Origin: Nemertoderma westbladi
Lineage: Eukaryota > Animalia > Xenacoelomorpha
Direction: 5' to 3'
DNA: 64,000 nucleotides
Assembly (NCBI GenBank): GCA_032718475.1
Contig: JAUCBJ010001800.1
Span: 16,862-80,861 of the forward strand
The notes beneath the pieces are model-generated. The model was not told the origin of the DNA. It made no database searches and saw only the letters and a program-made list of their open reading frames with translations. The translations under genes and the position numbers were made by a program. Positions 33,370 through 55,769 of the stretch are shown here, piece by piece. Within the stretch, counting starts at the first letter, position 1. Every line of letters begins with the position of its first letter.

Positions 33370-33449
33370 CTGTTTAGAGTAACTTTATATTTTAGAAACT
33401 GTGATTTGTTATATTTTATAGACTTAATAATCCCATTTTCTGGGAGCGG

Positions 33450-36600: not shown

Positions 36601-36853
36601 AGTATCAATATCTGATATCAATATAATAATGCTTGCTATATTTGGGTCAGATATATATATACTGTATATATCAGTATATAGCCGGTACAACAATACCAGA
36701 ATACAGTCAGGCAGTTGGCACGGCATAAGCAGACACATTCAGTACACAGTCAGACAAAGGTAATAAGGTACCGGTAATACTGTTGTAGGCTATATCAGCC
36801 ATACTAAAATATAACCACCACCAAGATAATATATAATTAAGGTACTGTATAAC

Positions 36854-37148
36854 TTGGAACACATATGTGAAAATGCCCTACCCGACATTGAAAACTTCTG
36901 GGTACCCAGAGCTTATTTCCCTAACGCTCTGCCATCGCACACGTACCAATTACACGTGTTCGGTGACGCTAGTGACAAGGGCATTGGTATCATAGCCTAT
37001 TATAGGGCCACTACACCCCAAGACACTCGGGTGTCATCACTAGTACTGTAGCGTCCAAATCTTTGATAAAATGCAAAGATTTAACAGTGCCAAGAACTGA
37101 ACTAAAGGCCGCACTGTTTGCAACTACTGTTGCCAAAAATATCCCTGA
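36854..37148 (+). pseudogene. Element C RNase H fragment (interrupted by B)
   Basis: YQLHVFGDASDKGIGI…VPRTELKAALFA..VAKNIP continues as DETDFVISRTVLWTD at 55770. Confidence 0.85.
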
Positions 37149-39053
37149 TATAGAATTATATTCTCTAAATGCCGTGGATTTTCAAAATTTTTATTTTATT
37201 CGAATTAACTTTGTTAAAAGATTACATTAAGTCCTCATTTGTATTTGCTATATCTATTTGTACGATGATTAGTCAAGTGGTTCAGTAGCTCAGTCGGTAG
37301 AGCGTTGGAAATTATATGTAGTGTGTATTGAGTTCGAATCCTTATTATTTTTTGTGCAGAATTTCAACTCATTTAAATTGACCGCTACAAATTAATTGCA
37401 TTTGCTCGAAGTAAGATTAACCAATGAGACTGTAGTTATTAGATTGTAACCAATGTCGTACAAGTTATATATTTGCTGGACCAATAGCTATCTTTAAAAA
37501 CCTGTTAGAACTCATAGAACAATCGAGAATTTTCTCGATTGATTGCGGCACAAATTTGGTATAAAAGGTGCGATTTCGTTCATTAGTTATATATCTAAAT
37601 CAGATTATATCTAAATCTCAGTCTATATCTCAATCATTCGTGATTTAGATTATCTTTATCTATTAGTTTCTTGTTACGTTTATGTATATCTTCTGTAATA
37701 AAGTCAGAATTATCGCTAATCTGCCCTTTTTCTATCTGTTCTACTATGCTTCACCACGGTGAACTCAACTGAGGGACAGGATGGCTGGCTAAACATCGGG
37801 CCACAGCAATGAACGGGAACATCTAAGGAATGTAGACAGGAGACAACCCGCAATATCACTCTTAGTTATTCGCCCATCGCCTGAAAGGTTAGACAGCGTT
37901 CGATGCCTTGCTACCTAAGTATAAGACCAAAGATCGAAGGTAGAGGTAGTGACACGCTGTACGCCTAAAATTACATCTAGGGACTGTACTGTTTTAATTC
38001 GGGAAAAAACCGCAGTAGACCTTCATATTCCTACGGGGGGAGAGCAGGCAGAGATACTAGTACGCAGATAGGACGTAGGCACACCGGTACAAAGCATACA
38101 CATTGGTAGGGTGCAGCAAACTGTACGCCTAACTCTTGCTAAGTACAGGTGCGTCTGTGACTATTTGTAGTACAACGGTGTCCATTGCATTAGAACTTGT
38201 AGGCCAGGAGGGTTACTGTGTTTCACCTGAATTAGGATTGTACCGTTCAGGCGGTAGGGCAGTTTACGACTAGGCGCAAATAAATTGAGGCTAATTAGGG
38301 ATACTAACATCTACCGTGTCCCCGCCGACATCCTGATAGGAAGTTACCAAGCCCACCTAGGTAACCAAAATTCTAGATAGGACGCCAGGCTAGCTATTAG
38401 TAACCGTACGCCTACTGTAGTAAACTAACACATTTCTTCTTAGCATTAGGGACCTGGTAAATTAAAATTGCCGAATTCTGGGCGTAGCATTAACCTTATG
38501 CCCGAATTTGAGTCCTGGAAATACGCAAGAGGGGAAGGAGCCTTATCATTCGTGAGTATTGGACCTACAAGTTACAAAATTAGAATATTCGTAAAATGCA
38601 CACCGTACCCAGTAATTATATATATGAAGGAGCAAAACTGATCTTGACGGTTCAGAATTAACACACGCGAGTTAGAAATTATTTACACCTCAAAATATAT
38701 AAAATTAACTTTTGTCCGTACTGCACTTTGCCCGCTAGTTAGACATCTCCAGATCTCTGCACCTAGCTAGCGTCCTTTTCGCCCAACCATATAAATCACA
38801 CCGCGGCAAAGTATACGAGCCCCTTAGTCCGTCAGTGAGTCAGCCTGATTTTAGGATTCGCTGCGCGGGATTTTGTTTTATCGAAGTTTGTCCGTTCGTA
38901 GACTGTTTTCTGCCTCACCGGTTATAAGAGACCGATACTGCAATATATTCGCTTACTTGGAGTTTACTGTTTTGGTGATAAGGTCGGATTTATGATTTGA
39001 TTCACAAACTCTACAGTAGGATATTGCAGGTATTGTTACTGTCTCTTCATTTA
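37149..39053 (+). repeat. 5' LTR of element B (1905 bp; termini TA…TA)
   Basis: Direct repeat of 53854-55769. TATA-like TATAAAAG at 37560; AATAAA at about 37697 and 38279. Confidence 0.95.
37279..37353 (+). ncRNA. tRNA-like Pol III cassette (A box, B box, T-tract) inside the LTR of B; second copy at about 53985-54069
   Basis: TAGCTCAGTCGGTAGAGC (D-arm / A box), GAGTTCGAATCC (B box), then a T tract. Acceptor and anticodon stems do not pair well. Confidence 0.55.
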
Positions 39054-39072
39054 GTAGGAATATGAAGGTCTA
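39054..39072 (+). promoter_or_regulatory. Non-tRNA primer-binding site of B, perfectly complementary to LTR 38016-38034
   Basis: GTAGGAATATGAAGGTCTA is the exact reverse complement of TAGACCTTCATATTCCTAC (38016-38034 and 54732-54750). Confidence 0.8.
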
Positions 39073-39633
39073 AAGTTATTTGAAAATTTTTGTATTTTGA
39101 GGTAAAATTTATATTTGATTAGCTAAGTGCTAATTTTTTGAAATAAAATTTGATTTGAACCGCGTGTAAAATATTTTGCAATTGAATACCGGTGTTTAAA
39201 AGGGTTTAAATACCATATTGTACCGGTACAAAATTTTCGTAAAAGTAAAACCTAACTCTTTTGTTTTTCAGGATTCAGAACTCATTTCTAGACTGTAACG
39301 AGAGCAAGACCGTGTTTAGCAAGTTTGGGAGATAGATAACCCAACAACTTTGGTTGGGAAAATCGCACTTCGTCCGCAACGCTGGAAACGGAAAGGTTCA
39401 CGTCCGGTTTGTATCTGGGAATCTGTTTTTCTGGAGAATTATTGGAGTGGGTGAGTTTGAAAAGTTGCATAAATAAGTTAGGCATTACCGTATTAGTTAA
39501 AATTATTGTGGGTTCCACTGTCTCAAGTATTTATGCATTCTGTACGATTTCTTTGTTCATTGCTGAATTAGTCCGTATTATTGTATTTAATTTACATTTT
39601 GATAACGCATATCGTTATCCGATTTATTTGTTA

Positions 39634-39757
39634 TAAAATTGGCCGCTAGGCTAATTTTATTATATACTTATTCCGTGACATTTATTTGCTGTAAAATTGG
39701 CCGTTTAGGCTAATTTTATCCATCTGCTATAAAATCGGCCGGTAGGCTAATTTTATA
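39634..39757. repeat. Three palindromic hairpins AAAATTGGCC-NNN(N)-AGGCTAATTTT in the leader of B
   Basis: Copies at about 39634, 39693 and 39731. Confidence 0.7.
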
Positions 39758-39842
39758 TGACTGTAATTAGTACCGTTTTGATATAAATACGGTAAATTTG
39801 ATACTTTGACACTCACATTTTACTTGACTTACAACTACCGAA

Positions 39843-42800
39843 ATGAGTGACAAACAAGACTATACGAAGAATACACCTACCGACTATGACTCATGTGACG
39901 CGGATAAGTCAGCAGCGGAAGAACTACAAGGGAAGACTTGTGAGCCTACCGAACCTACACCGTGTGCGTCACCAGTACATCCAACGGGAGTACCGGATGC
40001 CGTAGTACGAGGCGACGGCAGGACTGAGGATTTCCTAACGGTCCCGCAACCTAGATACAGGGAAACGGAGATGGTAAGTTCAGTAGGAAGCACAGAAAGT
40101 GTGGTTAGAAGCGTCGGAGGCTACATGGCGCATATTACTAGGAGTATTGGAGAAGGCCAACGCGTATTAGACGAGTTGACCGCTCCGATGTCTCGATTCG
40201 AGTTCTACACCCTCCAGGTTAGAGTACAAAGTAGAGTACATAAGTACGTAGATAATCTAATTGGTCTACAAGATCTAGCTAGACAGAGACAGGATGTGGA
40301 TACTCAACTTAGAATCCTCGAGAAACTAATGATCGCTAGAGAGAAACTGATTCAGTTTAAGTCGACGATTAGGCAGATACAACAGGAACAAGCGGACCAG
40401 TTGTTAGGTGAGTCAGTTTCGGACGAATTATTGCAGCCCGAGGAAGAACAGGAACTGTACCGACTGGATGGACAATTGAAACATCTGACGGACCACTTAC
40501 GTATGTGCGGTGAAGACGTCGGCGATTTGGAAACCGTGCCGGAATATACGAGGGAAACTTCACCCGTACAAATCGAATCGGCACCGGGAATACTGGACCA
40601 ATCGTTAGTGAGTATTGGCGAGGTAAGTATAGTGACGTCAGAAATTTCCAGACAGCAACAACAGCACTATAGACAACAACGGGAAATTGAGGAACAAACT
40701 CAACTGTTGACGGTACAAGCGGCGGTAGAAGAAGAAAAACTACGCGTTGCAAATGTTGCAAGAATCTCTCATCTGCAAGAACAAGCCGAGTTGGAAGCAG
40801 CTGAGATGGAAAGGTTGGAGCTAGAAATAGCACAGCGAACAGCGGCAGCTGAGTTAGCGCAACAAGCGGCAGCAGCTGAGTTAGAACGACGAGCGGCAGC
40901 AGCTGAGTTAGAACGACGAGCAGCAGCAGCGGAACTAGAGCGACGAGCAGCGGAGTTGGAAGAACACAAGCGAGTTTCGGAAGTAAGAGCTGAGATGAAA
41001 AAACGGCAAATAAAGGCTCAATCAGCTATACGACAAGCGGAGTTCGAGGCGCAACAACAACAGACGGAACAACGCGAGAAAGAAGTTAAACTTCATTTCG
41101 AACTCGAGAAGAAGGCGAGAGAATTAGCCAACGCGAAGGAAGATCTGGATCTACAAGCCCGCGATCGATCGATGAGATCTCGTGACGGACATGATTTGGA
41201 CCAGATAGAGGTAAGGCACCGCCAAATTCAGGAACGAATGAAGGAAGGAAGTGTAGGGGCACCTGGGCGAGAAAGACAATTAGTTAAAGACTTATGTCAA
41301 AGATTCCCTCAAGTAACTCCTATGTTTGCACCAGTTACGACTAAGGAACCTGTTTCGATTGCTGGTAGTAGTAATATTTCTCCTATCCATGGTGCGACGG
41401 AACACAGGTTTGTTATTCCGGACAAGTTTACACCGCCAAGAGCAACGTCATCGCCTATTCTGAAAGTCAAGGTAAGTAACCCACCGATTATAGATCGTAG
41501 TAGTTTGTTGACCAGACCTGCACTGCTGACGACTAAACAGGTGAGTCCACCTTTGACACCAAAACCCGTTACGCACTACACGTACCCAATGACGTTTAGG
41601 CCTACAAGGCCTTTAGATTCAAACGCTGTCATTCGACCACCGTTTAATCAGTTTACATCGCAATCTACAACTTCGAGGAAGACTTGTGAGCCTACCAAAC
41701 AACGGAGAACAGTGGATACGCGACCGTTTAATCAGTTTACATCGCAATCTACAACTTCGAGGAAGACTTGTGAGCCTACCGAACAACGGAGAACAGTGGA
41801 TACGCGACCGTTTAATCAGTTTACATCGCAATCTACAACTTCGAGGAAGACTTGTGAGCCTACCGAACAACGGAGAACAGTGGATGATGTTCCGAAACGG
41901 AATGTTAGAATTCGAACGACACAACGGACGCGAGCACGTCGACCAACATATCCAGGTGACAGTAGTACTTCAAGCGAGTCGGATTACCCGGAACGCGAGG
42001 TATTTAGAACAGGAGCGGCCGACGAATATAAACGTGAGCGTTCAGATAACTCCTTTATCGATAATCCTCCACACAATACACCAACACAGAAAGCGTTACA
42101 ACCAACAGACGCGATTAGTACGCAACAATTCGCCGATCTAATGCGACCAGTTGTAGACAAGTTGGCCCAGATAGAAGAACGTTTAGAAGAAACTCAAACT
42201 GATAGTTCGCGAGGTAACGAACACTCTAGACACCCGAAGCAGCAAAGAAAACAACCCTCGAGAAACACCTCGTATCAAGGAAAAGCGCCAAGACGAGAGA
42301 ACATCAACTCGATTGCCAACCAAGGACGCGAAACTTTGAACGTGGCCGAGGAGATAGCAAAATTTGCAGCGAGACAAGGACTACCGGTGCAACAACCACT
42401 GAAGTTTTCCGGTAACTCGAAACATTGGCACACCTTTGAGGACTACATCGAAACACAAATAGCAGCGTGCGCCTTTACATCAAGGGAAAAATTCAACTAC
42501 CTGCTACAAACGCTGACGGGAGAACCGAAACGTTTAGCGGAGACCTTTGTCGGTGTACCAGACGCCTTCGAACTAGCGTACGATCGCTTAACTTCGATTT
42601 ACGGAGGCACCGTAAGCATGGCTAAGTCAGTCATAGAAGAACTCTGTAAGGGGGGGGCTATAACAAAACCCGTTGACTTACTGAAATTAGCTGACGAGAT
42701 TAAGAACGCCATTACTACACTACGCTCGATTGGACAACTTGACTACGCGAACACTCCGACAGTCCTATTGAAAATAATAGGAAGATTACACCATCGACTT

Positions 42801-42860
42801 CGTCGGGAGTGGCGAAAGATAGAATATCAGCGAGAAGAGAGGAGAAGAGCGGATTCTTGA
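39843..42860 (+). CDS. gag: Element B gag (coiled coil plus DUF1759-like core), ends at a frameshift
   Basis: PLKFSGNSKHWHTF…EKFNYLLQTLTGEPK. Contains AAAELERR repeats and an 84-bp x3 repeat at 41635-41885. Confidence 0.85.
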   Translation: MSDKQDYTKNTPTDYDSCDADKSAAEELQGKTCEPTEPTPCASPVHPTGVPDAVVRGDGRTEDFLTVPQPRYRETEMVSSVGSTESVVRSVGGYMAHITRSIGEGQRVLDELTAPMSRFEFYTLQVRVQSRVHKYVDNLIGLQDLARQRQDVDTQLRILEKLMIAREKLIQFKSTIRQIQQEQADQLLGESVSDELLQPEEEQELYRLDGQLKHLTDHLRMCGEDVGDLETVPEYTRETSPVQIESAPGILDQSLVSIGEVSIVTSEISRQQQQHYRQQREIEEQTQLLTVQAAVEEEKLRVANVARISHLQEQAELEAAEMERLELEIAQRTAAAELAQQAAAAELERRAAAAELERRAAAAELERRAAELEEHKRVSEVRAEMKKRQIKAQSAIRQAEFEAQQQQTEQREKEVKLHFELEKKARELANAKEDLDLQARDRSMRSRDGHDLDQIEVRHRQIQERMKEGSVGAPGRERQLVKDLCQRFPQVTPMFAPVTTKEPVSIAGSSNISPIHGATEHRFVIPDKFTPPRATSSPILKVKVSNPPIIDRSSLLTRPALLTTKQVSPPLTPKPVTHYTYPMTFRPTRPLDSNAVIRPPFNQFTSQSTTSRKTCEPTKQRRTVDTRPFNQFTSQSTTSRKTCEPTEQRRTVDTRPFNQFTSQSTTSRKTCEPTEQRRTVDDVPKRNVRIRTTQRTRARRPTYPGDSSTSSESDYPEREVFRTGAADEYKRERSDNSFIDNPPHNTPTQKALQPTDAISTQQFADLMRPVVDKLAQIEERLEETQTDSSRGNEHSRHPKQQRKQPSRNTSYQGKAPRRENINSIANQGRETLNVAEEIAKFAARQGLPVQQPLKFSGNSKHWHTFEDYIETQIAACAFTSREKFNYLLQTLTGEPKRLAETFVGVPDAFELAYDRLTSIYGGTVSMAKSVIEELCKGGAITKPVDLLKLADEIKNAITTLRSIGQLDYANTPTVLLKIIGRLHHRLRREWRKIEYQREERRRADS

Positions 42861-44632
42861 AGTTGGAAGACGTCTACTTACTGATATCCAGAGAGGCAGT
42901 AGTCGAGACGCGTTCGAACTACACGGACCACCATATTGTGGCGGAAGGAATAACCTTACCATCCTCCAACAGACAAAAACCACCGATGACATCCACAAAG
43001 ACGGTTACCTACGCAACATCGACCGACACCCGACAATTTTCGGACAGTAATAAGGTATCCGCACCAATTGGAACCAAACAGATCCGACAGCAACTGAGCA
43101 CAGACTTTAGCGGTTGCCAATATTGCGAACGGCTAGGTTAATGACATACTAGCCATAAACTGAGAGGTTTTCGACTATTCCGCGAATTGAACTCGGAGGA
43201 ACGACGACTGCAAATACGGCCATTGGACTCTTGTTGGCGGTGTACGCTACATGGACATGTCCGTAAAGACTGCCCAAATACAGACACCTGTCCTTCCTGT
43301 GGACGCAACCATGGCGGTTTGCTCAACACAGACAGTCATACGCCGACAAAACGCTTCACCAGGGAACACCCGGAAGCGGCAGCAAGATGCAACACAGCAT
43401 ATAAGGGTCGAGAGTCAAAAACAACACCGACTTTCGTGACATACATTAGAGATTGCTTCTCGGAACAATCAGGATCGTCGGATGAAGAGTCGGAAGACGA
43501 AGACGTTTACTTTGATACTGGAGACGAACAACCATCGATTGCGCTTCTGACGCCTGATCAACTAAAGGGGTTTAGTATAATTCCTGTCAAGATTACTGGC
43601 ACCAAAGGGAGCAAAAGGATCTACGCTATCCTGGATTCAGCCTCATCTCATAGCTACGTGGATGAGAAAGTAGCTGATGTTGTGACGGATCTCCGACAAG
43701 GTAAGAACGTCAGTTACACCGTAAGTAGTATGCATGGACAACGTGCAATACCAGTGACACGAGTTAAGTTGAACTTAGACACTCTTCTTCCGAAATCACA
43801 ACATAGCGAAAAGGAGAGGTCTTTGTTACCCTTTAAAGATTTAACCGTTGCGGCCACAAAGGACTTTAGTAACCTACTAGGTCCTGTCCCAGAACAATCC
43901 TTGGAGGACCGTAAGTACTTCAGACACCTTGGTGTACCTGAATGTCCTGTCAACTATAGGTCGGTAGCAATGCTGATCGGGACAGATCAATTCAACCTAC
44001 ATCAAGTGTGGGAAACCAGACCATCGGCAGTCGTAGCGGGAAACGCATACGCCTGTAGAACGCCGATAGGGTGGTATACTCGAGCGCCTGTGCGCACACT
44101 GGATATAAGTGACGAGGAAGACGATATACAAAGTACATGTAGTTTATTAACTACAACTTCGACTCATTCCTTTTCACACGACGTAGACTATACTACACTA
44201 CATTCGACAAAACATGACACGACGTGTGTAGTGAGTATGATAAGTCACAAGGAGCAGCTAATCCACCAGGTGAGTTTAGAACTTGGGAAGAAGACGAGTC
44301 AGCCAGAGATTCCATCGACGACAGATGATAACGCCGGAAGGCTTGCGAGTCTACCTCAACCAATAACCTCAACAATGCCCGTCGATATCGATGATGACGC
44401 GTTAAGAAATCATCAAGTGGAACAAGCTGCACTGGACAAAGAATTAACGGAGAAGACTATCAGGTGGTTAGAACAAGATACAGCCGAACCTGGTAGCTAT
44501 GAACCATGTATGTCGGAACAAGAGAAACAATCTTTGAAGATCATGGAAGATACTATCCGCCAGACGAAAGACGGACATTATGAGGTAGGGGTGCTATGCC
44601 GTAACCAACGTCCTAAACTTATAAATAACTAG
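42809..44632 (+). pseudogene. pol: Element B gag knuckles plus aspartic protease (broken by a stop or frameshift)
   Basis: CQYCERLG*, CWRCTLHGHVRKDC, CPSCGRNHGGLL, AILDSASSHSY, LIGTD. Confidence 0.8.
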
Positions 44633-44706
44633 CCTTAAGACGTTTACACTCAATACGACAACGTCTATTAAAGGACGAGAAAGCCCATCTGCAGTATAAT
44701 ACTCAG

Positions 44707-47700
44707 ATGGAGACGTATTTAACGAAGGGATACGCTATCAGAATAACTAACCCAGAGATTGTGACTGACCAGACATACTACTTGCCACATCACTACGTGA
44801 GACACCCCGACAAACCAGACAAAGTACATGTAGTCAATGACTGCGCGGCGCTGTTTGAGGGAATGTCCCTCAATAGTGAGTTAATGGATGGACCAAACAT
44901 GAATAATTATCTCATGGGGGTGATTATGCGCTTCCGTCAGCGTCAAGTAGCCTTTACTTGTGACGTCGAAGCTATGTTTCACCAAGTGCGAGCGTTAGAG
45001 CGAGACAGAGACAGTTTTAGGTTCCTCTGGTACCCGGAAGGAGACTTAAGTCTACCACCGGCGACTTACCAAATGCAAGTTCGCGTTTTCGGTGCCAGGG
45101 ACAGCCCAAACTGTACGATGTACGCCCTAAAGCAAGCCGCTAGGGATCAGAAACATATATATGACCCAGAGATAATCAAGATCGTAGAACGCGACTTTTA
45201 TGTAGATGACGGATTACAGAGTTATGACACAGTAGAACGTGCTATAACAGTAGCACATCAATTACGGGACTGCTTAGCGGGCGGAGGTTTTAACCTCACC
45301 AAATTCGCCTCAAACAGTGCCGAATTGGTAGACTCATTCGGAACGACTGAGCGTGGAGGTGGTGACATTGACCTAGAGTTCGAACTACTACCGACGACCA
45401 AGGTGTTGGGGCTCTTTTGGGACCCAAACACGGACAACTTTCGAGTGAAGGTGAGACTGGACACTCAAGAAAACACTCTGACAAAGAGATCCTGCTTGTC
45501 AAAATTGAGTCGATTGTTCGATCCATTAGGTTTCATCAGCCCAATAATACTGCAAGCCAGAATTTATATGCGCAGTATTTGGAAGGATGGACTGACATGG
45601 GACGAGCCGATCTCATCAGAACAAGTGGACTTATGGAAAACCTGGGAGGCAGAATTATCTTCACTAGAGGATTATTCCATACCCAGAGTGTACTTTCCAT
45701 TACAAACGACATTTCCTGACAATTTGGAATTACATTGTTTTTCCGATGCCAGTGACAACGGCTTTGGTGTGGCAGCGTATTTACGCAGACAAGTAGACTC
45801 AGACGAGTTTGATGTTTCGCTCATTACTTCTAAGGCTAAAACCATGCCTACTAAGTATATGACGACACCATGCGCTGAGCTACAAGCCGCAACCCTGTCA
45901 ACCACAATCGTGAACCTTATACAGACGGAACTACAGTCAAGTTTACAGATATTTTATTGGACTGACGCGACGTTGGTTTTATTTTACATAAACAACGACA
46001 CACTTGAATTCAAGACATTCGTAGCTAACCGTCGCGCAGAAATTCTAGACCGTTCAATAAAGGAAGATTGGCGACATTGTCCCGGACCACAAAACCCAGC
46101 CGATATTGCGTCACGAGGAATGATGCCCGAGGAATTCTGTAAACCGGAGAACAAAGAATTTTGGCAGCACGGACCACAATTCTTGCAAAGATCAACACTA
46201 CATTGGCCGCCACTATACGACAACAAGTCTAACACTATCCCTAAAGACGCCGAAATTAAAAAACCAAAGAAAGGGAAAGCAAAGAAAAGGACGGCGGCTA
46301 AACTCAAGAAAAAACCAAAGGCGAAATGGAAAGATATAACTTCAAAGGTCAAGAACGGAAGACTTGCGAGCCTTTCTACACCAGACATATCGCCAGATGA
46401 TCAACCAGACACGTTACCAGACGTATCGCCAGACGCGTTACTAGACGGTCAACCAGACGTTTTGCCAGACATGTCACTAGATATTTCGCCGGATGTTCCG
46501 CGAAACATTTTACCAGACATGTCACAAAATGTTCTACCAGACACTAGTAACATATTGACAAATAGTAAAGCCGCAGTTTCTCTATTGGAGCGGCCTTCTA
46601 TTGACAAACAACCAGACGCGTTACTAGACGGTCAACCAGACGTTTTGCCAGACACGTCACTAGATATTTCACCAGATGTTCCGCGAAACATTTTACCAGA
46701 CATGTCACAAAATGTTCTACCAGACACTAGTAACATATTGACAAATAGTAAAGCCGCAGTTTCCCTATTGGAGCGGCCTTGTATTGACAAACTACCAAAT
46801 TTGACACACTTGAGCAACCATAAGCACAGTGAAACCTCATGTATTACAGATGTGGGTAGTACCTACGCTAATGTAAATACAGGTGTTACTTTGCGCTCAA
46901 GAGACATACCAAACTTGCAACCTATGGTGAGAACCGGGATTAATATCGGCAGAAAATTAAGTTTACCGAAACCCAGTGACCCCATAGAGTTCAAACCACC
47001 ATTAACGATCGACTTACAAAGTACCGACAATCAAGGTAAGAAGACAAAGAAGGACAAATTACTTGTAGACCCGGATGGATCAACAGTCAACAAGGGAATA
47101 CCTACCGGCGCACCCATGGGCCCTTCTAGTAATTCAAAACCTTCCAAATTCTCCATTGACTTACCTGATGACGTCACAAATACTTACGTCGACCGTATTG
47201 TAAACTTAACAGATTCTTGGACAAACGCTTGCCGAAAATTAGCGTGGATTGTACGTTTTGTACAATACGTTAAAGGCAAACGAGACTTTACACGTCGACT
47301 TACATTGACTGAGATTGACAGGTGTGAAATTAAATTAATTCGCCATTACCAACTGCGATATTTTGCGCGCGAATTCACATCTATAAGTCAAGGTCAACCA
47401 ATCAAGTCGTCACCAATATTGAGTTGGAGTCCGATAATTTATAATGGCTTAATTTGTCATAAATCTCGGCTTCAAAACATTGACTTTAACACAAACTTTA
47501 GATACCCAATAATAATACCGCAGCATCACGAATTACAACGTGCAATGATACTGGACGCACATTTACATCTGAAACACGCTGGAAGACACCACTGTCTTTC
47601 CTACTTACGTACAAGATTTGTATTAATTAGACCCAGTAAAGCGTTAAGTTTAGTGACACGTACGTGTATTATTTGTAAAAAGGTACATTCTAGAATAGGT

Positions 47701-48696
47701 ACCCAAGAAATGAGTGAACTTCCACAAGCACGACTTCAAGCATTCAGACCACCTTTTACAGAGACTGGAATTGATTGCTTTGGTCCCATACATACGAAAC
47801 GTGGACGTATACTAGTAAAACGCTGGGGACTGATTTTCACATGTATGTCCAGTAGGGCAGTTCATATTGAACGTGTGATGGATCTTTCCACCAACGCGTT
47901 TATACTAGCATTGCGGCGATTTATCGCTAGACGCGGACTAGTGAAATGCTTGTACTCAGACCAAGGGACAAACTTTGTTGGTGCTCGAAATGAGATTGCT
48001 AGAGCCTTTAAGAAATTAGATCATGATCAAATCTCAAACGAACTACGTCCTTACAAGATTGTTTGGAAGTTTAATCCTCCAGATAGTCCATGGAGAGGCG
48101 GAGTCTGGGAGAGATTGATTAGATCTATAAAAACAGCCATGGCAAAGGTCATTCCAGTAAACCACATCTTGACAGACGACCAACTGACAACACTGTTTGT
48201 TGAAATCGAGGCAATACTAAATACTAGACCAATAGTATTAGTACCCGATGACAAACAATCCCAGTTTGCTTTAACACCAGCACACCTGCTTATGCAGGCA
48301 CCGACTACATTAACGCCTATTTCTTTTCCAATGGAAGGCGATAGCTACGGTAGAAAAGCGTGGAAAATCACGCAACTACTAGCTAACAAATTCTGGGAAA
48401 TATGGCAAAACCATTATTTGCCCTCTATTTCTGCCAGAACAACATGGTACAATAACACCCGCGCATTAAAGCCGGGAGATCACGTGCTGTTAGCAGAAGT
48501 GAATCTAAAAAGACGCTTCTGGATAACAGGTGTAATTTTAGACACACATCCATCTATGGATGGAGTAACAAGAACTGTGACGGTACGGACAATTGACGGT
48601 CGTACAGTAGACAGACCGACTCAACGTCTCGTACTTCTTGAAGAGTCTCGAAACGAGTCTGGAGACTACAAATCTCCAACAAATGTTAGTAAATAA
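44707..48696 (+). CDS. pol: Element B RT-RNase H-integrase
   Basis: CDVEAMFHQV, FYVDDG, FDPLGFISP, LHCFSDAS, NPADIASRG, GIDCFGP, SDQGTNF, GGVWERLI. A 198-bp x2 duplication lies in the RH-IN linker (about 46410-46790). Confidence 0.92.
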   Translation: METYLTKGYAIRITNPEIVTDQTYYLPHHYVRHPDKPDKVHVVNDCAALFEGMSLNSELMDGPNMNNYLMGVIMRFRQRQVAFTCDVEAMFHQVRALERDRDSFRFLWYPEGDLSLPPATYQMQVRVFGARDSPNCTMYALKQAARDQKHIYDPEIIKIVERDFYVDDGLQSYDTVERAITVAHQLRDCLAGGGFNLTKFASNSAELVDSFGTTERGGGDIDLEFELLPTTKVLGLFWDPNTDNFRVKVRLDTQENTLTKRSCLSKLSRLFDPLGFISPIILQARIYMRSIWKDGLTWDEPISSEQVDLWKTWEAELSSLEDYSIPRVYFPLQTTFPDNLELHCFSDASDNGFGVAAYLRRQVDSDEFDVSLITSKAKTMPTKYMTTPCAELQAATLSTTIVNLIQTELQSSLQIFYWTDATLVLFYINNDTLEFKTFVANRRAEILDRSIKEDWRHCPGPQNPADIASRGMMPEEFCKPENKEFWQHGPQFLQRSTLHWPPLYDNKSNTIPKDAEIKKPKKGKAKKRTAAKLKKKPKAKWKDITSKVKNGRLASLSTPDISPDDQPDTLPDVSPDALLDGQPDVLPDMSLDISPDVPRNILPDMSQNVLPDTSNILTNSKAAVSLLERPSIDKQPDALLDGQPDVLPDTSLDISPDVPRNILPDMSQNVLPDTSNILTNSKAAVSLLERPCIDKLPNLTHLSNHKHSETSCITDVGSTYANVNTGVTLRSRDIPNLQPMVRTGINIGRKLSLPKPSDPIEFKPPLTIDLQSTDNQGKKTKKDKLLVDPDGSTVNKGIPTGAPMGPSSNSKPSKFSIDLPDDVTNTYVDRIVNLTDSWTNACRKLAWIVRFVQYVKGKRDFTRRLTLTEIDRCEIKLIRHYQLRYFAREFTSISQGQPIKSSPILSWSPIIYNGLICHKSRLQNIDFNTNFRYPIIIPQHHELQRAMILDAHLHLKHAGRHHCLSYLRTRFVLIRPSKALSLVTRTCIICKKVHSRIGTQEMSELPQARLQAFRPPFTETGIDCFGPIHTKRGRILVKRWGLIFTCMSSRAVHIERVMDLSTNAFILALRRFIARRGLVKCLYSDQGTNFVGARNEIARAFKKLDHDQISNELRPYKIVWKFNPPDSPWRGGVWERLIRSIKTAMAKVIPVNHILTDDQLTTLFVEIEAILNTRPIVLVPDDKQSQFALTPAHLLMQAPTTLTPISFPMEGDSYGRKAWKITQLLANKFWEIWQNHYLPSISARTTWYNNTRALKPGDHVLLAEVNLKRRFWITGVILDTHPSMDGVTRTVTVRTIDGRTVDRPTQRLVLLEESRNESGDYKSPTNVSK

Positions 48697-49358
48697 TTAG
48701 GAGTTTACAAATAGATTTCCACGTACCTGTACACTGTAGTAAGGACAGCGGTAGAATTCCATTGTCTTTATATGTGAACATTGAGGGTAGTACCCTTATG
48801 TGTCACATAGGAGCGGGATTTGTAGGTATAAGAAATGGAATTCTACTTGGAACTCACAATATTGAGACATTTTCGAAATTTTAGACAATCCATTTGGATT
48901 TGAAAATTTTTTAAAATTTTCTCCAGTGAATAGATTTCAGGGTACAGTCGGGTGGAACTTAAAATTTGAGAAACAAGAGAGGAAGACTTGCGAGCCTTTC
49001 TTAAAAATTTTAATTAAATTTTACACGGTCTTGTTTCAATAAGTTACGTCAAAATAGACTTCCCTATATTTATTACTAATTCTTGACTGCTTATTTTCTG
49101 ATAATAGTTTGGGATCAAAAAGTGAGTATTTTAGACTCACAGCCAGTTTAGCCCAAATTCGTTTTTATTTTCGGCAAAAAATTTTAGATAAGAAGCAGCG
49201 TGTCATTAAAGAAACCCTAGATCTTAGGCTATGGGTAGGAGGTTAGAGCGTTGTCGAGCCAAAAGGGCAGACGAAAACTCTCACATCTCCTCACAACTAA
49301 CTACAAACTCTGTTGTATTCCCTCTAGTAGTAATGATTATGTAACTACACCTCTAATT

Positions 49359-52300
49359 ATGGAGAAGGAGATACATGGAGAGCCGAGATGGGGATATGAT
49401 ATCCAAGAGGAAGTAGCAGCGCCATTCGAGAGATTTGGAGCCAAAGACTACACTATATTTGGTATAAAGGAATTATCAGAAAGTACAGCGAAACTCGCGA
49501 GAACTAAATATGACTCAAACGTATTAAAGAGAAGGCAAAACGCATTAAATGAAAGAATCAAAAGTTTGCGCAAAACCTTCAATGAACTTTACCCGTACGA
49601 CGCTTTGTGTGATACGGGAGACATTAGCGAAGACCCCGATACTGAAATTAGTCGTTTGTATCATACCATGCAATACCTAAAGGCGCACGAACCTATGCCT
49701 GCGGTACACGTTGAATTCGATGGAATGCACCTTTACAGACGAACTCGAGGGGACGATAGAGAAACAAAGGAAGCATTTTCAGTTTATAAACTTTATTATC
49801 AATGCGGTTCTTGTATGCGCAAACAACGAAATGCGATTCCAATGCGTTTGAATAAGGAAAATCCCGAACCGATATTGGCGAGGTGTTCGAACCATCAACG
49901 ACTACGCTACCAGGAAGGAGGGTATCCTTTATCAAATCCATATCATTCGTTTGCTATGACTGGACCAAAGGCGGGAGAAACTGTCGTTTACCCACCTAAG
50001 GTTGTTGAACCCGATGCATTTGAACTTACGCTGGACGAGGCGAATCAGTCAACCCGCGAAAAGAAAGAAGCTCTTAGCCTATACAGAGCCTACAAGGCTT
50101 TCGAGAAAGGTGAGATGGAAGAATGGGGCGGAAGACTCGCGAGCCTACCTTACCATTGGACGTCACACGATCAAACTCCAGCTAAGGAGATGACACCGGA
50201 AGTTTTCGAGAGCATAAACTTTGCTCAAAACGTTATTCAGAGACTACAGATTGCATCCCCGGAGAGGACAAGAGAAATGCAACCATATAGTACTTCGACT
50301 ACGAAACCATTGAGTACGACACTCAATTTTCCTATTAGTATACCAGTCCGACAGGATACGACGTACGAAATACCCATCGTGGATCATCCAGAAATCATTT
50401 CAAACTTGGAGTTCCTTCCTGCAGTTGTTTTTAGCGATATGAGTAAGATATATGATTTACGTAGACATATTACTCAAAAGGTCGTGTATAACGTTCCACC
50501 TCATATTCAAGACTTTAGGGAACTGGATAGAGCTGGTGCTGATATAGCTCCGAGTAATTTGAAAGGATATTTAACCAGAACGATTCGTTTATGGATTGGA
50601 ACTGGAACCTTCGAGTTGGATACAGATATTGCCGCGGATTGGCAAGGTAAGCTTATTCGTTTTGAAGATGATAAGGACATAGAGAAGATTTGGCAACCTT
50701 CGGAAGAATTGTTGGACGAATGGAATAGAACGTTTAGATCGTTTCAGGAAAATGGTTACATGTTTTACGATAACGAGGGCGGCAGTCATCAACAGAGTTT
50801 GACTTCTAAGACTATACAAATTAGAGCGGCGGACGGAGTCTTGCACGTTTTCAGTAGACAAAGGAGCGACAAACGAATGCCGATACCTCCAGCAAATACA
50901 AAGCGACACCATCTCATCACTGACATAGTAAAGAAGATGGACCAAGCTTGTAATATCGATGCTAGAATGCTACCGAAGATGGTAAGAAATATGATTTTAG
51001 ATAAAACTGTCGTAAAGATTGGATCAGGAGTAAGAGAGGACTTAATTAGCGACTTCGCCGGCATGACGGACAGCAATGACCGACTACCGACACCGTACGT
51101 CGACACTCGACCTCTTATTTTGTGGTCTATAGAACAGGGATATTTTCGTGAGTATAATACTCAGAAGACTGGAACTGGATACATTTCCTACCTGTTATTC
51201 AATTGGGATTATAAGGAAAGTAAGAGAGCTAAGTATATTGAGACTTATGGAGAAGGTGATACTCCAGATATGAGTGAGTTTGAATCACAGCTCAAATGGA
51301 GAGGATGCGTGTATTGGGCTATTACGTCACCTCCAAGAGCGGTCTTACAATATTATTTAGCAATAGAGTCGTCAGTGAATGTTTGCTTAATCGCCGACAT
51401 TGTGTCTCGGACTCTTAAAAGACATCCACTTTGTCTCGGAGAAGATCATACGTTCTACATGGAAGGGAGAATTCATACCGACGTGTTTAGACGATTTCTT
51501 GAACCCTTCTACAACTCCGACGCTCAGTGTAATGCCTTTACTCGAGCAGGATTTAGTATATTTCGAGACGTGTATCTTCGCTGTGCGGGATCTCTTATCG
51601 AAAGACCATCTATGTTTACATTGTTACCCTATGAAGGAGAACGTATCGTGGAGGTTATGGATGAATCACGGCAGACGCGCGCGCCTATCGGTCACCTTGG
51701 TGATGATTTCGAAGTAACGACAACAATCACTGACGATCCTTTAGAGGAACTTCTTGAGATAGAAAGGAACCTCCCGAAGAAATCTCAGACGGAGATTCGA
51801 CAACTTGAAGCAACAGATGCTGTAGTTTGTATACAACCTTCAGAAACATACCAACCCATAGATCCAGATGATTATGATTATAGTGTGGGAGGAAGCGCTC
51901 GACCAATTGGAGATCTTATATACGAACGAGTGTGGTACCCTGCCAATACGATGTGTGGTAAATGTGGCGTCGCTGGACATCATTTGACCAAGTGCAGTGG
52001 AAAGCACATTACTACGACTCAACTAATCTGTGGATGGTGTGGAGATCAAGGGTCTCATACCTTTTATACTTGCTGGAGATTTATGGCTCAATGTACTTAT
52101 TGCAATATAAAAGGGCATCGAGCATCTGAATGCCAACTAAGAGACATACCTTATGAACACGAATCTGTAAAACTCGTGAGAAAACTATTCGATGAGTGGG
52201 AATATTTAGCCGACGAACATGTATCGGCACAAAGAAGACGATTTCCGATGAGAGCGCATCTTGGATTTTGGGCGGTAAATCCTCAAACTATGATGTCGGA

Positions 52301-53051
52301 AGGATACATCTCCGCTATGCCCCAATATGACGAACTTATCGAGGAAGTCGACATTTTGCCTCACGATAGTGGATATAGAGTGGTGCGCGAGTATCTATTA
52401 CAGATTCACCCGGACAACAAGAACACGTGGAATTTTCAGAAAGTTGTGAATCGTATCACGTATGGTGAATTTGATCGTTTCCGAACTGAAAAGCGGAATA
52501 AGGGAGCTTGGTTAACCGTCGCATGGGCATACCGAGCCGCGTTTTACCACAAACGTATACGAGCGAGCGTATTCGAGGAAGAGGAGATCCTAGAGGCGAC
52601 AAATATACCAGCCACTCCGGTTGCGCCGTCTGCACGTCACCCTCGGGAGGACGGACAGGGTAGGATCATAAGGGTCAAGAAAGTGAGCCAACAATTAAAG
52701 AAGTCTATTAATATAGAAGAACGCAAGGGAGTTGAGCCGACCATTCGAATTACTCGGGATACGGTATCGCTTCCTAGAGAACCAACAGGAGGATCGGGAC
52801 ATACACCAGCTGATCAAAAGGGGGTGCAAGCTACTCTTGGGTCTGCATCGTCCGCTTCCCGCGCGTTCCCAGACGTTTTACCAACTGTAGTGACAACTGA
52901 TCGGTCACGAGGAATCGGTCGAGGTTTTGGGATACCAAATAGACGAATTTGCGAGGAAATAGTCGCACCGTCTCCCAACGTACAAGCAAAACCAGTGACT
53001 CGCCCCACGAGTCCCATATCGCGAGCAAAGTCACCTGTGCGCAGTTTTTGA
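49359..53051 (+). CDS. Element B ORF3: Cys/His N-terminal domain, DnaQ-like (WRN/EXD/Mut-7 type) 3'-5' exonuclease, and 3 CCHC zinc knuckles
   Basis: ExoI-like MFYDNEG..TIQI; ExoII-like LPKMVRNMILDKTVVKIGSGVREDL, YVDTRPL; ExoIII-like W…PPRAVLQYYLAIE. Knuckles CGKCGVAGHHLTKC, CGWCGDQGSHTFYTC and CTYCNIKGHRASEC. Open for 1230 aa from the ATG. Confidence 0.75.
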   Translation: MEKEIHGEPRWGYDIQEEVAAPFERFGAKDYTIFGIKELSESTAKLARTKYDSNVLKRRQNALNERIKSLRKTFNELYPYDALCDTGDISEDPDTEISRLYHTMQYLKAHEPMPAVHVEFDGMHLYRRTRGDDRETKEAFSVYKLYYQCGSCMRKQRNAIPMRLNKENPEPILARCSNHQRLRYQEGGYPLSNPYHSFAMTGPKAGETVVYPPKVVEPDAFELTLDEANQSTREKKEALSLYRAYKAFEKGEMEEWGGRLASLPYHWTSHDQTPAKEMTPEVFESINFAQNVIQRLQIASPERTREMQPYSTSTTKPLSTTLNFPISIPVRQDTTYEIPIVDHPEIISNLEFLPAVVFSDMSKIYDLRRHITQKVVYNVPPHIQDFRELDRAGADIAPSNLKGYLTRTIRLWIGTGTFELDTDIAADWQGKLIRFEDDKDIEKIWQPSEELLDEWNRTFRSFQENGYMFYDNEGGSHQQSLTSKTIQIRAADGVLHVFSRQRSDKRMPIPPANTKRHHLITDIVKKMDQACNIDARMLPKMVRNMILDKTVVKIGSGVREDLISDFAGMTDSNDRLPTPYVDTRPLILWSIEQGYFREYNTQKTGTGYISYLLFNWDYKESKRAKYIETYGEGDTPDMSEFESQLKWRGCVYWAITSPPRAVLQYYLAIESSVNVCLIADIVSRTLKRHPLCLGEDHTFYMEGRIHTDVFRRFLEPFYNSDAQCNAFTRAGFSIFRDVYLRCAGSLIERPSMFTLLPYEGERIVEVMDESRQTRAPIGHLGDDFEVTTTITDDPLEELLEIERNLPKKSQTEIRQLEATDAVVCIQPSETYQPIDPDDYDYSVGGSARPIGDLIYERVWYPANTMCGKCGVAGHHLTKCSGKHITTTQLICGWCGDQGSHTFYTCWRFMAQCTYCNIKGHRASECQLRDIPYEHESVKLVRKLFDEWEYLADEHVSAQRRRFPMRAHLGFWAVNPQTMMSEGYISAMPQYDELIEEVDILPHDSGYRVVREYLLQIHPDNKNTWNFQKVVNRITYGEFDRFRTEKRNKGAWLTVAWAYRAAFYHKRIRASVFEEEEILEATNIPATPVAPSARHPREDGQGRIIRVKKVSQQLKKSINIEERKGVEPTIRITRDTVSLPREPTGGSGHTPADQKGVQATLGSASSASRAFPDVLPTVVTTDRSRGIGRGFGIPNRRICEEIVAPSPNVQAKPVTRPTSPISRAKSPVRSF

Positions 53052-53853
53052 GGACGCGGCAGGGCTCGATCTACTAAGCGATAAAAGGGAGGGCAAGGGT
53101 GGACGGAAGACTCGTGAGCCTTTCTTGTGAATTTGTGATTTATTTGATTAGTAAGTTTTGTATTCTGGAAGAACTCATATTTAGTAAGATTTATATTTAG
53201 TAAGAATTTATATTTTGCAAGATTTATATTTTATATTTGTGATTATTCCGAACTTATGCAATTTATATTGTTCCGAATACTATGCAATTTATATCTTATA
53301 AGCAGTATTTGTATTTACAGTGAAATAGAAAGTAAGAGTAGATGGAAGACTCGTGGGCCTTTCTTATAGTAAAGTGTAAAGTGTTATATTTGTATTTAGA
53401 AAGTTTTATAGTTAGAAAGTTTTGTACTTAGAAAGACTCATATTTGTAATTATTCCGAACTTATGCAATCTACATTTAGGCACGAAAGTATTTGTAATTA
53501 TTTGAATTTATGCAATATTTGAGATGCAATAGTAGATGGAAGACTCGCGAGCCTTTCTTATGATTTTCATTTATTTGTATTTGTAATTGTTTGAATTTAT
53601 GCAATATTGAGATGCAATAGATTTATATTGGTGAATTTAATTTAGATTTATATTGTACTTACTTAGTAAAGCCTTAAATATGTAAAGTTTGAATTTGTAA
53701 TTATTTTGTATCGAATCATTATGTAGAAAGGAAGTATTGCTTGAAATTTAATTTGTAAATATGTAAGTACGCCCTAAGTATTCTATAATTTGATTGATTA
53801 TTGGTGAAAACCGTATATTTTATGCACGATAATATCCTGTTTTCATGGAGCGG

Positions 53854-55769
53854 TATAGAATTATATTCTCTAAATGCCGTGGATTTTCAAAATTTTTATT
53901 TTATTCGAATTAACTTTGTTAAAAGATTACATTAAGTCCTCATTTGTATTTGCTATTATCTATTTGTACGATGATTAGTCAAGTGGTTCAGTAGCTCAGT
54001 CGGTAGAGCGTTGGAAATTATATGTAGTGTGTATTGAGTTCGAATCCTAGTAGGTGCGAATTATTTTTTGTGCAGAATTTCAACTCATTTAAATTGACCG
54101 CTACAAATTAATTGCATTTGCTCGAAGTAAGATTAACCAATGAGACTGTAGTTATTAGATTGTAACCAATGTCGTACAAGTTATATATTTGCTGGACCAA
54201 TAGCTATCTTTAAAAACCTGTTAGAACTCATAGAACAATCGAGAATTTTCTCGATTGATTGCGGCACAAATTTGGTATAAAAGGTGCGATTTCGTTCATT
54301 AGTTATATATCTAAATCAGATTATATCTAAATCTCAGTCTATATCTCAATCATTCGTGCTTTAGATTATCTTTATCTATTAGTTTCTTGTTACGTTTATG
54401 TATATCTTCTGTAATAAAGTCAGAATTATCGCTAATCTGCCCTTTTTCTATCTGTTCTACTATGCTTCACCACGGTGAACTCAACTGAGGGACAGGATGG
54501 CTGGCTAAACATCGGGCCACAGCAATGAACGGGAACATCTAAGGAATGTAGACAGGAGACAACCCGCAATATCACTCTTAGCTATTCGCCCATCGCCTGA
54601 AAGGTTAGACAGCGTTCGATGCCTTGCTACCTAAGTATAAGACCAAAGATCGAAGGTAGAGGTAGTGACACGCTGTACGCCTAAAATTACATCTAGGGAC
54701 TGTACTGTTTTAATTCGGGAAAAAACCGCAGTAGACCTTCATATTCCTACAGGGGGAGAGCAGGCAGAGATACTAGTACGCAGATAGGACGTAGGCACAC
54801 CGGTACAAAGCATACACATTGGTAGGGTGCAGCAAACTGTACGCCTAACTCTTGCTAAGTACAGGTGCGTCTGTGACTATTTGTAGTACAACGGTGTCCA
54901 TTGCATTAGAACTTGTAGGCCAGGAGGGTTACTGTGTTTCACCTGAATTAGGATTGTACCGTTCAGGCGGTAGGGCAGTTTACGACTAGGCGCAAATAAA
55001 TTGAGGCTAATTAGGGATACTAACATCTACCGTGTCCCCGCCGACATCCTGATAGGAAGTTACCAAGCCCACCTAGGTAACCAAAATTCTAGATAGGACG
55101 CCAGGCTAGCTATTAGTAACCGTACGGCTACTGTAGTAAACTAACACATTTCTTCTTAGTATTAGGGACCTGGTAAATTAAAATTGCCGAATTCTGGGCG
55201 TAGCATTAACCTTATGCCCGAATTTGAGTCCTGGAAATACGCAAGAGGGGAAGGAGCCTTATCATTCGTGAGTATTGGACCTACAAGTTACAAAATTAGA
55301 ATATTCGTAAAATGCACACCGTACCCAGTAATTATATATATGAAGGAGCAAAACTGATCTTGACGGTTCAGAATTAACACACGCGAGTTAGAAATTATTT
55401 ACACCTCAAAATATATAAAATTAACTTTTGTCCGTACTGCACTTTGCCCGCTAGTTAGACATCTCCAGATCTCTGCACCTAGCTAGCATCCTTTTCGCCC
55501 AACCATATAAATCACACCGCGGCAAAGTATACGAGCCCCTTAGTCCGTCAGTGAGTCAGCCTGATTTTAGGATTCGCTGCGCGGGATTTTGTTTTATCGA
55601 AGTTTGTCCGTTCGTAGACTGTTTTCTGCCTCACCGGTTATAAGAGACCGATACTGCAATATATTCGCTTACTTGGAGTTTACTGTTTTGGTGAGAAGGT
55701 CGGATTTATGATTTGATTCACAAACTCTACAGTAGGATATTGCAGGTATTGTTACTGTCTCTTCATTTA
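53854..55769 (+). repeat. 3' LTR of element B (1916 bp), preceded by short PPT ATGGAGCGG
   Basis: Direct repeat of 37149-39053, followed by TSD CCTGA. Confidence 0.95.

Follow-up and report, generated by a model that had tools for sequence, protein, structure and literature searches.

A dispersed two-armed 20-nt motif as a candidate self tag in a BEL/Pao retrotransposon of Nemertoderma westbladi

A young BEL/Pao LTR retrotransposon of Nemertoderma westbladi, termed element B (37149-55769 of the window, the 64-kb stretch of DNA analysed here), carries 13 copies of a 20-nt motif, all on the + strand. The copies are likely to be a family-specific tag because evenly spaced, near-self-complementary sites occur together with an extra gene, ORF3, whose product is predicted to trim and to bind RNA. 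That these sites form a multivalent self tag on the RNA of element B, read by ORF3, is the explanation we tentatively prefer.

Results

The host retrotransposon

Element B has a Gag with DUF1759, the domain order PR-RT-RH-IN, a Pao RNase H (PF05380), and DUF5641, together with LTRs of 1.9 kb and a 5-bp target-site duplication (CCTGA, at 37144-37148 and 55770-55774). The 5′ LTR (37149..39053, +; 1905 bp, with a TATA box at 37560 and AATAAA at 37697) differs from the 3′ LTR (53854..55769, +) by seven mismatches and small gaps over 1905 aligned bases, and sequencing run X3 contained a joint matching the empty site of the insertion. All coding regions lie on the + strand: the gag and protease region (39843..44632; DUF1759 and Gag knuckles), which in this copy consists of two open frames, with stops at ∼42858 and 43139-43144; pol (44629..48696), encoding RT, Pao RNase H (Peptidase_A17), and integrase (H2C2, DUF5641); and an intact ORF3 of 1230 aa (49359..53051). 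Of the 7991 candidates scored in the pol search, 1285 were homologous at E ≤ 1e-60, the best of them with 43% identity. The RH-IN linker is expanded to 480 aa; across 103 homologues, its median length is 197.

In typical BEL/Pao elements, the termini are TG..CA and the site for the tRNA primer begins with TGG. Element B departs from this pattern, as its termini are TA..TA and its primer-binding position (39054..39072, +), which lacks the TGG start, consists of 19 nt exactly complementary to bases 38016-38034 of its own LTR; ARAGORN found no match. Placed by pol ancestry, element B is an atypical BEL/Pao member. Two GT..AG introns on the + strand are predicted from joints in contigs of run X4, which are recorded as "DNA?": one in the U5/leader region (37888..39271) and one, also backed by its site sequences, joining the leader to ORF3 (39451..49327). 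The latter joint suggests that the ORF3 message is spliced; the predicted intron contains 8 of the 13 motif copies.

Copies of the motif in element B and beyond

Eleven copies had been listed in the earlier note, and all of them are present at the coordinates given there, whereas 100 shuffles of the sequence yielded on average 0.03 matches when ≤3 mismatches were allowed. Nine are exact, that at 53344 has one mismatch, and that at 44336 has two. The region assignments and reading frames given in that note are also correct. Its copy number, however, needs revision in two ways: the 11 copies represent only seven independent sites, because the gag triplet is a tandem repeat and the 3′-UTR trio lies in duplicated blocks, and two further copies (47581 and 51670) had been overlooked.

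The first copy (39931..39950) lies in the Gag N-terminus at aa 30; neither the leader nor anything else before 39931 contains one. Copies 2-4 (41677, 41761, and 41845; 41677..41864) belong to an 84-bp tandem repeat in gag. Copy 5 (44336..44355), a G6/T15 variant, is situated in the PR-RT linker and copy 6 (46357..46376) in the expanded RH-IN linker. The newly found copy 7 (47581..47600), located in the coding sequence of the integrase H2C2 domain, combines two perfect arms with a foreign centre, ACCACT. Copy 8 (48981..49000) falls in the pol-ORF3 spacer and copy 9 (50130..50149) at aa 258 of ORF3. The second new one, copy 10 (51670..51689), lies in an ORF3 linker at aa 771; it has three mismatches, one of them in an arm, and its positions 8 and 13 are jointly altered to G-C. 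Copies 11-13 (53105, 53344, and 53538; 53105..53557) are in the 3′-UTR. The sites are evenly spaced, ∼1.7 kb apart (P 4e-4 to 6e-3 over the tests). For the seven independent sites, the coefficient of variation was 0.30 (P 0.006); P was 0.002 under a linker-only null and 0.0004 for nine sites.

The motif appears to be specific to the element. Scanning upheld its reported absence from the LTRs of B and from the neighbouring element A, and it was also absent from 79 distant BEL/Pao loci, only six of which extend >2 kb past integrase. Long duplications aside, neither A nor these loci contained a comparable dispersed family at ≥4 sites. The idea of a genome-wide micro-insertion was checked within the window, where the only match outside B is an arm-only one at 4305 with positions 8/13 unpaired (0.14 expected); no separate antisense copy occurs there. 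The exact motif had no match in viral contigs and nine scattered single matches in prokaryotic genomes, as chance would give. Element A retains only the N-terminus of ORF3, including its finger, and lacks the exonuclease-knuckle module; the link between motif and ORF3 hangs on this one neighbour.

Architecture, variation, and predicted folding

The motif consists of two inverted 7-nt arms around a 6-nt centre, GRWAGRC-N6-GYCTWYC. The arms are retained and the centre is dispensable. The arms are two-fold symmetric, each invariant at the same four positions, and the spacer is free. At most sites the 20-nt edges are sharp and the flanks unrelated. The motif is read as KTCEPT in gag and as GRLASL in pol and ORF3, and further copies are non-coding, which bears out the earlier claim that the constraint acts on the nucleic acid; a protease-site or peptide constraint was rejected on the same grounds. 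A role as internal polypurine tract was also rejected, as the motif is unlike the tract adjoining the 3′ LTR.

Four of the eight pairs are invariant. Positions 8/13 can pair in all 13 copies (U-A, U-G, A-U, or G-C), a covariation that depends on three events, whereas 6/15 are unpaired in seven of nine distinct rows. Among changes at the centre, C>T occurs nine times and G>A never, and as few as two to four ancestral changes may lie behind this excess. In four runs, the three UTR copies showed no substitutions or indels at ≥8%, vs 11 substitution rows and at least 12 indel rows in their flanks, a contrast that is weak alone (P about 0.07). The G6/T15 changes at 44336 do keep pairing through G-U, as had been claimed, but they are synonymous as well and equivalent to an inversion of the inner segment. 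At the 47581 site, in the integrase zinc domain, B carries a Cys where all 69 DNA loci compared have V, T, or S and none of 111 homologous proteins has Cys; the arms have no mismatch in B and three in the closest relative.

A stable free hairpin, as proposed in the earlier note, is not borne out. The standard copy contains an A.C mismatch at 6/15, to which the TACC type adds A.A at 3/18, and the predicted energy of the hairpin core is −0.4 to −2.0 kcal/mol, only the 44336 copy reaching −4.9. When the 11 first-listed copies were folded within 100 nt of context, only one was predicted to form the hairpin; over all 13, it was predicted in two sense-strand contexts vs seven antisense. Nor is the YGYG loop required, as the 47581 copy has the loop CCAC, which offers no G for reading by a knuckle. 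Duplexes between copies are predicted to be far more stable (−8 to −32 kcal/mol). The 44336 copy is the best predicted partner for each of the other eight standard sites tested (−26 to −32), and motif-to-motif pairing was predicted in 25 of 45 context pairs vs 11 of 200 controls.

The ORF3 protein

ORF3 resembles, by its sequence, a 3′-5′ exonuclease of the DEDDy/RNase D type followed by three CCHC zinc knuckles. The predicted exonuclease domain (50700..51410, +) comprises ExoI (D471, E473), ExoII (D561), and an ExoIII-like YLAIE; the knuckles (51954..52133, +) span aa 866-925. Alignment with the 3′-5′ exonuclease family by hhalign (90.8%, P 1.2e-6, 93 columns) placed D471, E473, and D561 on invariant columns of PF01612-type DEDDy exonucleases. 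In YLAIE (aa 665-670), which is beyond the hhalign match, E replaces the D of the ExoIII YxxxD. When searched against PF01612, the ORF3 domain alone gave no match and one of three aligned members matched at E 0.035; the Atlas lead for ORF3 was PF01612+PF00098 (0.83). The knuckle region of a three-sequence profile matched HIV NC at E 2e-6. The representative search with ORF3 yielded four proteins at E ≤ 0.001, two of them knuckle-only and two true architectural relatives; the latter two, both distant, have the exonuclease, the knuckles, and a C-terminal block in common with ORF3. Other homology searches with ORF3 gave no match, and both AlphaFold models were of low confidence (pLDDT 32 and 44). 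The N-terminus contains helices and a CxxC..CxxH finger; no support was found for a bHLH-like fold. Identity as Env was rejected, as ORF3 has neither a signal peptide nor a transmembrane anchor (19-residue hydropathy maximum 1.38; N-terminal maximum 0.19). The earlier proposal of ORF3 as a reader of the motif is plausible, and the predicted RNase D-type exonuclease and NC-like knuckles strengthen it.

Discussion

As a self tag, the sites would work as follows. ORF3, produced from its spliced message, would engage each site as a short stem stabilized by the protein or as a copy-to-copy duplex, as the hairpin by itself lacks the necessary stability. With a site occupied every 1-2.6 kb, the 17-kb RNA would be labelled as self, and RNA so labelled would be shielded from decay and collected into a particle-forming RNP. 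Of the possible outcomes (protection, packaging, or transport), protection together with RNP assembly is our choice ahead of nuclear export. Because the predicted spliced RNA also carries 5 of the 13 copies, the tag alone could not select genomic RNA. Action at the RNA level is favoured by the pairing of 8/13 in every copy and by the one-sided changes at the centre, which contrast with the split of 3 TG to 4 CA among CpG-type differences of this copy; the rarer prediction of the hairpin on the sense than on the antisense strand, the four invariant pairs, and the mostly unpaired 6/15 count against it. In a further step, which we consider quite unlikely, the exonuclease-knuckle protein would spare tagged RNA, or be docked by it, and break down competitor or defence RNA that lacks the tag. 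This would be a self/non-self system acting on RNA in an animal retrotransposon, with tag and reader co-evolving in each family much like VANC motifs at the DNA level.

The main rival, an unlikely one in our estimate, places recognition on double-stranded DNA: the motif would be an operator for a dimeric protein of the element, namely ORF3 acting through its N-terminal helices and finger, and its evenly spaced binding would prevent silencing in a VANC-like manner. Two-fold symmetric arms with four shared invariant positions and a free spacer fit such an operator, mismatches that destroy an RNA stem carry no cost in DNA, and the copies have spread partly via same-orientation tandem duplication, as described for VANC motifs (PMC5735166). 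The single orientation is no proof of RNA action either, because VANC DNA motifs are likewise same-oriented in that account (PMC5735166). This copy also shows CpG-type decay (7 among the 23 listed differences examined, 3 TG and 4 CA), while third codon positions in B show a preference for C ahead of G (0.48 vs 0.38; P 3e-5, inflated by tandem repeats), compared with 0.45 vs 0.47 in A. On the other hand, no CpG gradient exists near the sites (P 0.79), G>A is absent at the centre, the LTR promoter is without a site, the recognizable domains of ORF3 are single-strand-acting, and A, although motif-free, has the N-terminal finger as well.

Pairing between RNAs could also suffice by itself, the self-complementary 20-mers joining two genomes or compacting one, with Gag as chaperone and 44336 as hub. 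The predicted duplexes, far beyond the hairpins in stability, the excess of motif-motif contacts over controls, and the ability of YGYG centres to pair via G-U agree with this, and Ty1 is described as dimerizing by its PAL1/PAL2 palindromes (PMC6844567). Nevertheless, we judge it very unlikely: the retained A.C mismatch weakens the duplex, the self-duplexes of three copies did not clearly exceed shuffled ones (fractions 0.015, 0.056, and 0.80), the 47581 centre is unable to pair, and pairing would not by itself fix arm identity. A host RNA-binding protein, transcription factor, or small RNA might read the site, with ORF3 unrelated. One antisense guide would tolerate, via G-U, every change in the 11 standard copies except that at position 18, but the two extra copies disrupt guide pairing at the centre, Rfam gave no match at E ≤ 1 across 36500-56500, the window holds no separate antisense copy, and the site is unused by A and the 79 other loci; this explanation is highly improbable. 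There is a similarly slender chance that the family is a neutral by-product, a short palindrome spread by template jumps of reverse transcriptase and tolerated in linkers, its seed possibly being the codons for G-R-x-x-x-L-S in integrase. The family copies are young, some have common flanks, tandem and UTR duplications occur, and the equivalent of the integrase site reaches up to 7/8 pairs in 2 of 69 relatives. Against this stand the abrupt 20-nt boundaries, beyond which most sites have unrelated flanks, the even spacing, the unusual integrase Cys, and the lack of a comparable dispersed family in A or the 79 loci. As for template-switch (TRS-like) signals, which would leave junctions at the motif, none among the best-supported 15 of 89 joints connects distant copies.

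Several known systems resemble the preferred RNA tag in part. The LTR retrotransposons Juno and Vesta of bdelloid rotifers encode DEDDy-exonuclease ORF3s of unknown function (PMC5408684). As in these elements, the third ORF of element B is family-specific, has an RNase D-like domain, and lacks a transmembrane segment, and its message, typically spliced there, is predicted to be so here; unlike them, for which the available text mentions neither CCHC knuckles nor a repeated cis motif, it is a BEL/Pao element with 13 cognate-looking sites (PMC5408684). VANC proteins of VANDAL transposons are described as counteracting silencing through family-specific DNA motifs (PMC5735166). Both systems pair an extra element protein with a family-specific short motif in a single orientation, multiplied by tandem duplication. 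However, VANDALs are plant DNA transposons with 8-9-bp non-palindromic motifs, described as clustering in non-coding regions (PMC5735166), whereas the 20-nt two-armed site of B is singly dispersed through coding regions and the ORF3 domains are of RNA type.

RSV NC is described as binding a UGCG loop (PMC5035970), and UGCG is among the centre variants of B. Self-complementary RNA and CCHC readers are likewise common to B, Psi/DIS signals, and Ty1 PAL1-PAL2, but those signals are described as confined to the 5′ leader and as marking unspliced RNA (PMC5035970, PMC6844567). The first copy in B is at 39931, past the motif-free leader, and stable stem-loops with G-containing loops are not the rule. 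The Psi- or RRE-like confinement to unspliced RNA implied by the earlier note is not supported, as five copies lie past the predicted ORF3 acceptor; instead of the single large structured element in a retained intron known from Rev/RRE, 13 short sites flank this acceptor on both sides. Egalitarian is described as binding RNA by an exonuclease-homology domain and requiring two RNA elements (PMC13186709). The Egalitarian-BicD signals, including the I factor ILS, resemble the proposed tag in the use of such a domain for RNA stems and in ≥2 elements counted per transcript, but Egalitarian is a host protein and its signals are described as long, bent stems that have little sequence in common (PMC13186709). 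In B, the site is short and near-identical, and the candidate reader is element-encoded and keeps acidic active-site residues.

A literature search, covering main texts and few subscription journals, found no paper on a family-specific site scattered through a BEL/Pao element. The role that additional ORFs play in LTR retrotransposons is an open question in the parts of the literature consulted (PMC7264820, PMC5408684). In element B, an extra ORF with recognizable RNA-acting domains adjoins a sharply defined candidate target, and therefore a single binding assay, RNA vs duplex DNA, could assign its function. If the DNA operator were correct, element B would provide an animal counterpart of VANC anti-silencing. 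If the RNA tag is correct, a 17-kb retroelement marks its own RNA as self with no need for a leader-confined signal.

Number and form of the motif copies

All 11 copies of the 20-nt motif that the earlier note had placed on the + strand were recovered at their positions (11/11; shuffled sequence gives 0.03 matches). In a matrix scan, they scored 30–36 bits, against at most 9.3 for anything in the window outside element B, a BEL/Pao LTR retrotransposon. An 84-bp tandem repeat accounts for three of the copies, and duplicated 3′ UTR blocks hold another three; the 11 copies thus amount to seven independent sites. The motif is translated as KTCEPT in gag and as GRLASL in pol and ORF3 (the extra ORF following pol, 49359..53051), and four copies are non-coding. 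Selection therefore acts on the nucleic acid, as had been proposed. A scan for the arms alone added two copies, named by their starts 51670 and 47581. In the former, G-C replaces U-A at motif positions 8 and 13 and there is one arm mismatch; in the latter both arms are perfect and the centre reads ACCACT. About 0.02 sites scoring at least as high as the weaker of the two are expected per 14.8 kb. With both included, the form of the site becomes GRWAGRC-N6-GYCTWYC.

The seven original sites are evenly spaced (gap CV 0.30; P 0.006 versus uniform placement, P 0.002 when placement is restricted to linkers). Adding 51670 and 47581 gave gaps of 1.1–2.6 kb with a CV of 0.26 (P 0.0004, post hoc).

Copy 47581 is located within the integrase zinc domain, and its likeness to the motif owes partly to conserved G-R-x-x-x-L-S codons. 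At the equivalent place, 7/8 pairs were reached in two of 69 relatives, all of which have at least three arm mismatches. The invariant C7 and G14 of the motif belong to the codons of a His and a Cys of the B integrase, the His being shared by 1/69 loci and the Cys by 0/69 loci and 0/111 proteins. In our view, 47581 either arose as a site in spite of the constraint on the protein or is the ancestor from which the motif came; on either reading, the arms matter and the YGYG centre is dispensable.

Confinement to element B and its family

The reported absence of the motif from the neighbouring element A was borne out; no copy was found there or in 79 metagenome BEL/Pao loci (586 kb; best E 0.14) with 36–42% identity in RT-RH. 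A general detector for comparable dispersed families found nothing in A or in 72 of these loci; four gave three loose AT-rich matches, and three gave paired matches with a spacing indicative of long duplications. Because just six of the 79 reach >2 kb beyond the integrase, and an exonuclease was found in none, these loci are no test of a link between ORF3 and the motif.

Contigs of the B family were found in four sequencing runs. Across these, the three UTR copies showed zero differences at ≥8%, and their flanks 11 substitution rows, 13 indel rows (12 listed) and 14 joints, a contrast of about P 0.07 by our own arithmetic. Among the 40 listed of 1466 whole-element differences, one falls within the motif, at 39939, a position occupied by C in the other copies; CpG decay private to the B copy in the window thus accounts for some of the YGYG variation.

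RNA structure of the motif

As originally drawn, the hairpin folds weakly. An A.C mismatch is present in 11 of the 13 copies (with a second mismatch in the TACC type), and within 220-nt contexts the hairpin was predicted for 2/13 on the sense and 7/13 on the antisense strand. Its energy ranges from −0.4 to −2.0 kcal/mol in ten original copies and is −4.9 in 44336. Four of the eight pairs are invariant, and a two-sided change occurs at positions 8 and 13 only. The variant at 44336 had been noted to keep pairing through G-U; its two changes are synonymous and also equivalent to an inversion of positions 6–15, and so are no proof of RNA structure. Pairing between copies is predicted at −8 to −32 kcal/mol, with 44336 being the best partner for each of the other eight standard sites.

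Organization of element B

Element B (37149–55769) has 1.9-kb LTRs that are ∼99% identical and a CCTGA duplication; its LTRs end in TA..TA (37149, 55769), versus TG..CA in A. Pfam and homologues assign it to BEL/Pao (best identity 43%), and those homologues that carry names point to an animal host. The gag-protease region of this copy is interrupted by stops; RT-RH-IN and ORF3 are open. Two introns are predicted from GT..AG joints in run X4, at 37888–39271 and 39451–49327, the second joining the leader to ORF3. These joints are no more than a hint that B is transcribed, since the X4 contigs are recorded only as ‘DNA?’. B itself was inserted into another BEL/Pao element, the third in the window and now decayed, within its RNase H region (36830–37148, 55770–57600), and an empty-site joint is present in run X3.

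A TGG primer site is absent from B. The 19 nt after its 5′ LTR (39054–39072) are exactly complementary to its own U5 (38016–38034, and 54732–54750), a stretch falling inside the first predicted intron; judged from sequence, B is likely self-priming. In A, 12 nt at the primer position (18794–18805) are complementary to its own LTR (18104–18115). In U3 of both B LTRs, A and B boxes like those of tRNA genes precede a T run (37286–37341, 53992–54047); this stretch, which drew no ARAGORN or Rfam call, is perhaps a Pol III unit or SINE head. Third codon positions in B (39843–53048) prefer C before G (0.48 vs 0.38), and CpG o/e is 1.14 in B, 0.92 in A and 0.69 in the left flank.

Element A has LTRs at 17674–18793 and 33450–34615 and an AGATC duplication. 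Elsewhere in the window are a 1.1-kb direct repeat of 94% identity (1–1135 and 34854–36003), an intronless F-box gene within a repeat-rich region (15032–16477), and a 146-bp tandem repeat (2900–3525) containing GCTAGAGGGCG, which we take to be CTCF-site-like.

Domains of ORF3

Word-indexed searches with ORF3 gave no match; a full HMMER search gave four proteins at E ≤ 0.001. Two of these, P0122 and P0124, align to the central domain, the knuckle cluster and the C-terminal block. Both are unnamed proteins on 7–9 kb contigs with the exonuclease, knuckles and WGF block in common with ORF3; this family appears to be unannotated. Compared with an alignment of eight bacterial PF01612 domains, the central-domain profile matched with 90.8% probability (P 1.2e-6), and D471, E473 and D561 fall on its invariant acids. 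Of the three PDB matches of the profile, one was to EXD2 (E 0.65) and another to Egalitarian (E 0.68), neither of them strong; an Atlas match to a PF01612+PF00098 cluster (0.83) is a lead only. Three CCHC knuckles (aa 866–925) follow the exonuclease-like domain, and no membrane segment was found in ORF3. The predicted exonuclease could in principle trim a self-primer of B.

The counterpart of ORF3 in element A is related to the N-terminal part only (aa 89–189, E 4e-6), and exonuclease, knuckles and motif are all absent from A. This decayed ORF3 (31926–33382) has a CxxC..CxxH finger in common with that of B, and a basic tail at its end.

How the motif may be read

The nameable parts of ORF3 are domains acting on single-stranded nucleic acid; the motif and these domains occur together in B and are both missing from A; positions 8 and 13 are paired in every copy (once as U-G); and the centre changes C>T only. 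Together, these observations suggest that the sense RNA of B carries the motif copies as a multivalent tag, which ORF3 would read as a protein-stabilised stem or as a copy-to-copy duplex, covering the RNA along its whole length; we hold this reading tentatively, at slightly less than even probability. The symmetry, free spacer and poor folding are accounted for equally well by a DNA operator bound by a dimer, and VANC motifs, bound by anti-silencing proteins of VANDAL transposons, also form same-strand arrays (PMC5735166); we regard an operator as unlikely. Action through pure RNA pairing between the copies is more doubtful again. Recognition by a host factor, or the spread of the copies by neutral copying, we consider quite improbable.

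In the literature searched, no description of such a dispersed-motif system in BEL/Pao was found. According to the excerpts available, exonuclease ORF3s are reported in rotifer LTR elements with function unassigned there (PMC5408684), Ty1 dimerisation is driven by leader-confined palindromes (PMC6844567), a UGCG loop is read by RSV NC (PMC5035970), and the exonuclease-like domain of Egalitarian counts RNA stems (PMC13186709); the excerpt of PMC13524379, which deals with env-carrying elements, has nothing on the motif. The proposal of a packaging, dimerisation or RRE-like signal holds in part: by the defining tests the motif is neither a Psi/DIS nor an RRE, the retroviral packaging/dimerisation and export signals, but it may act as these do, in dispersed form.
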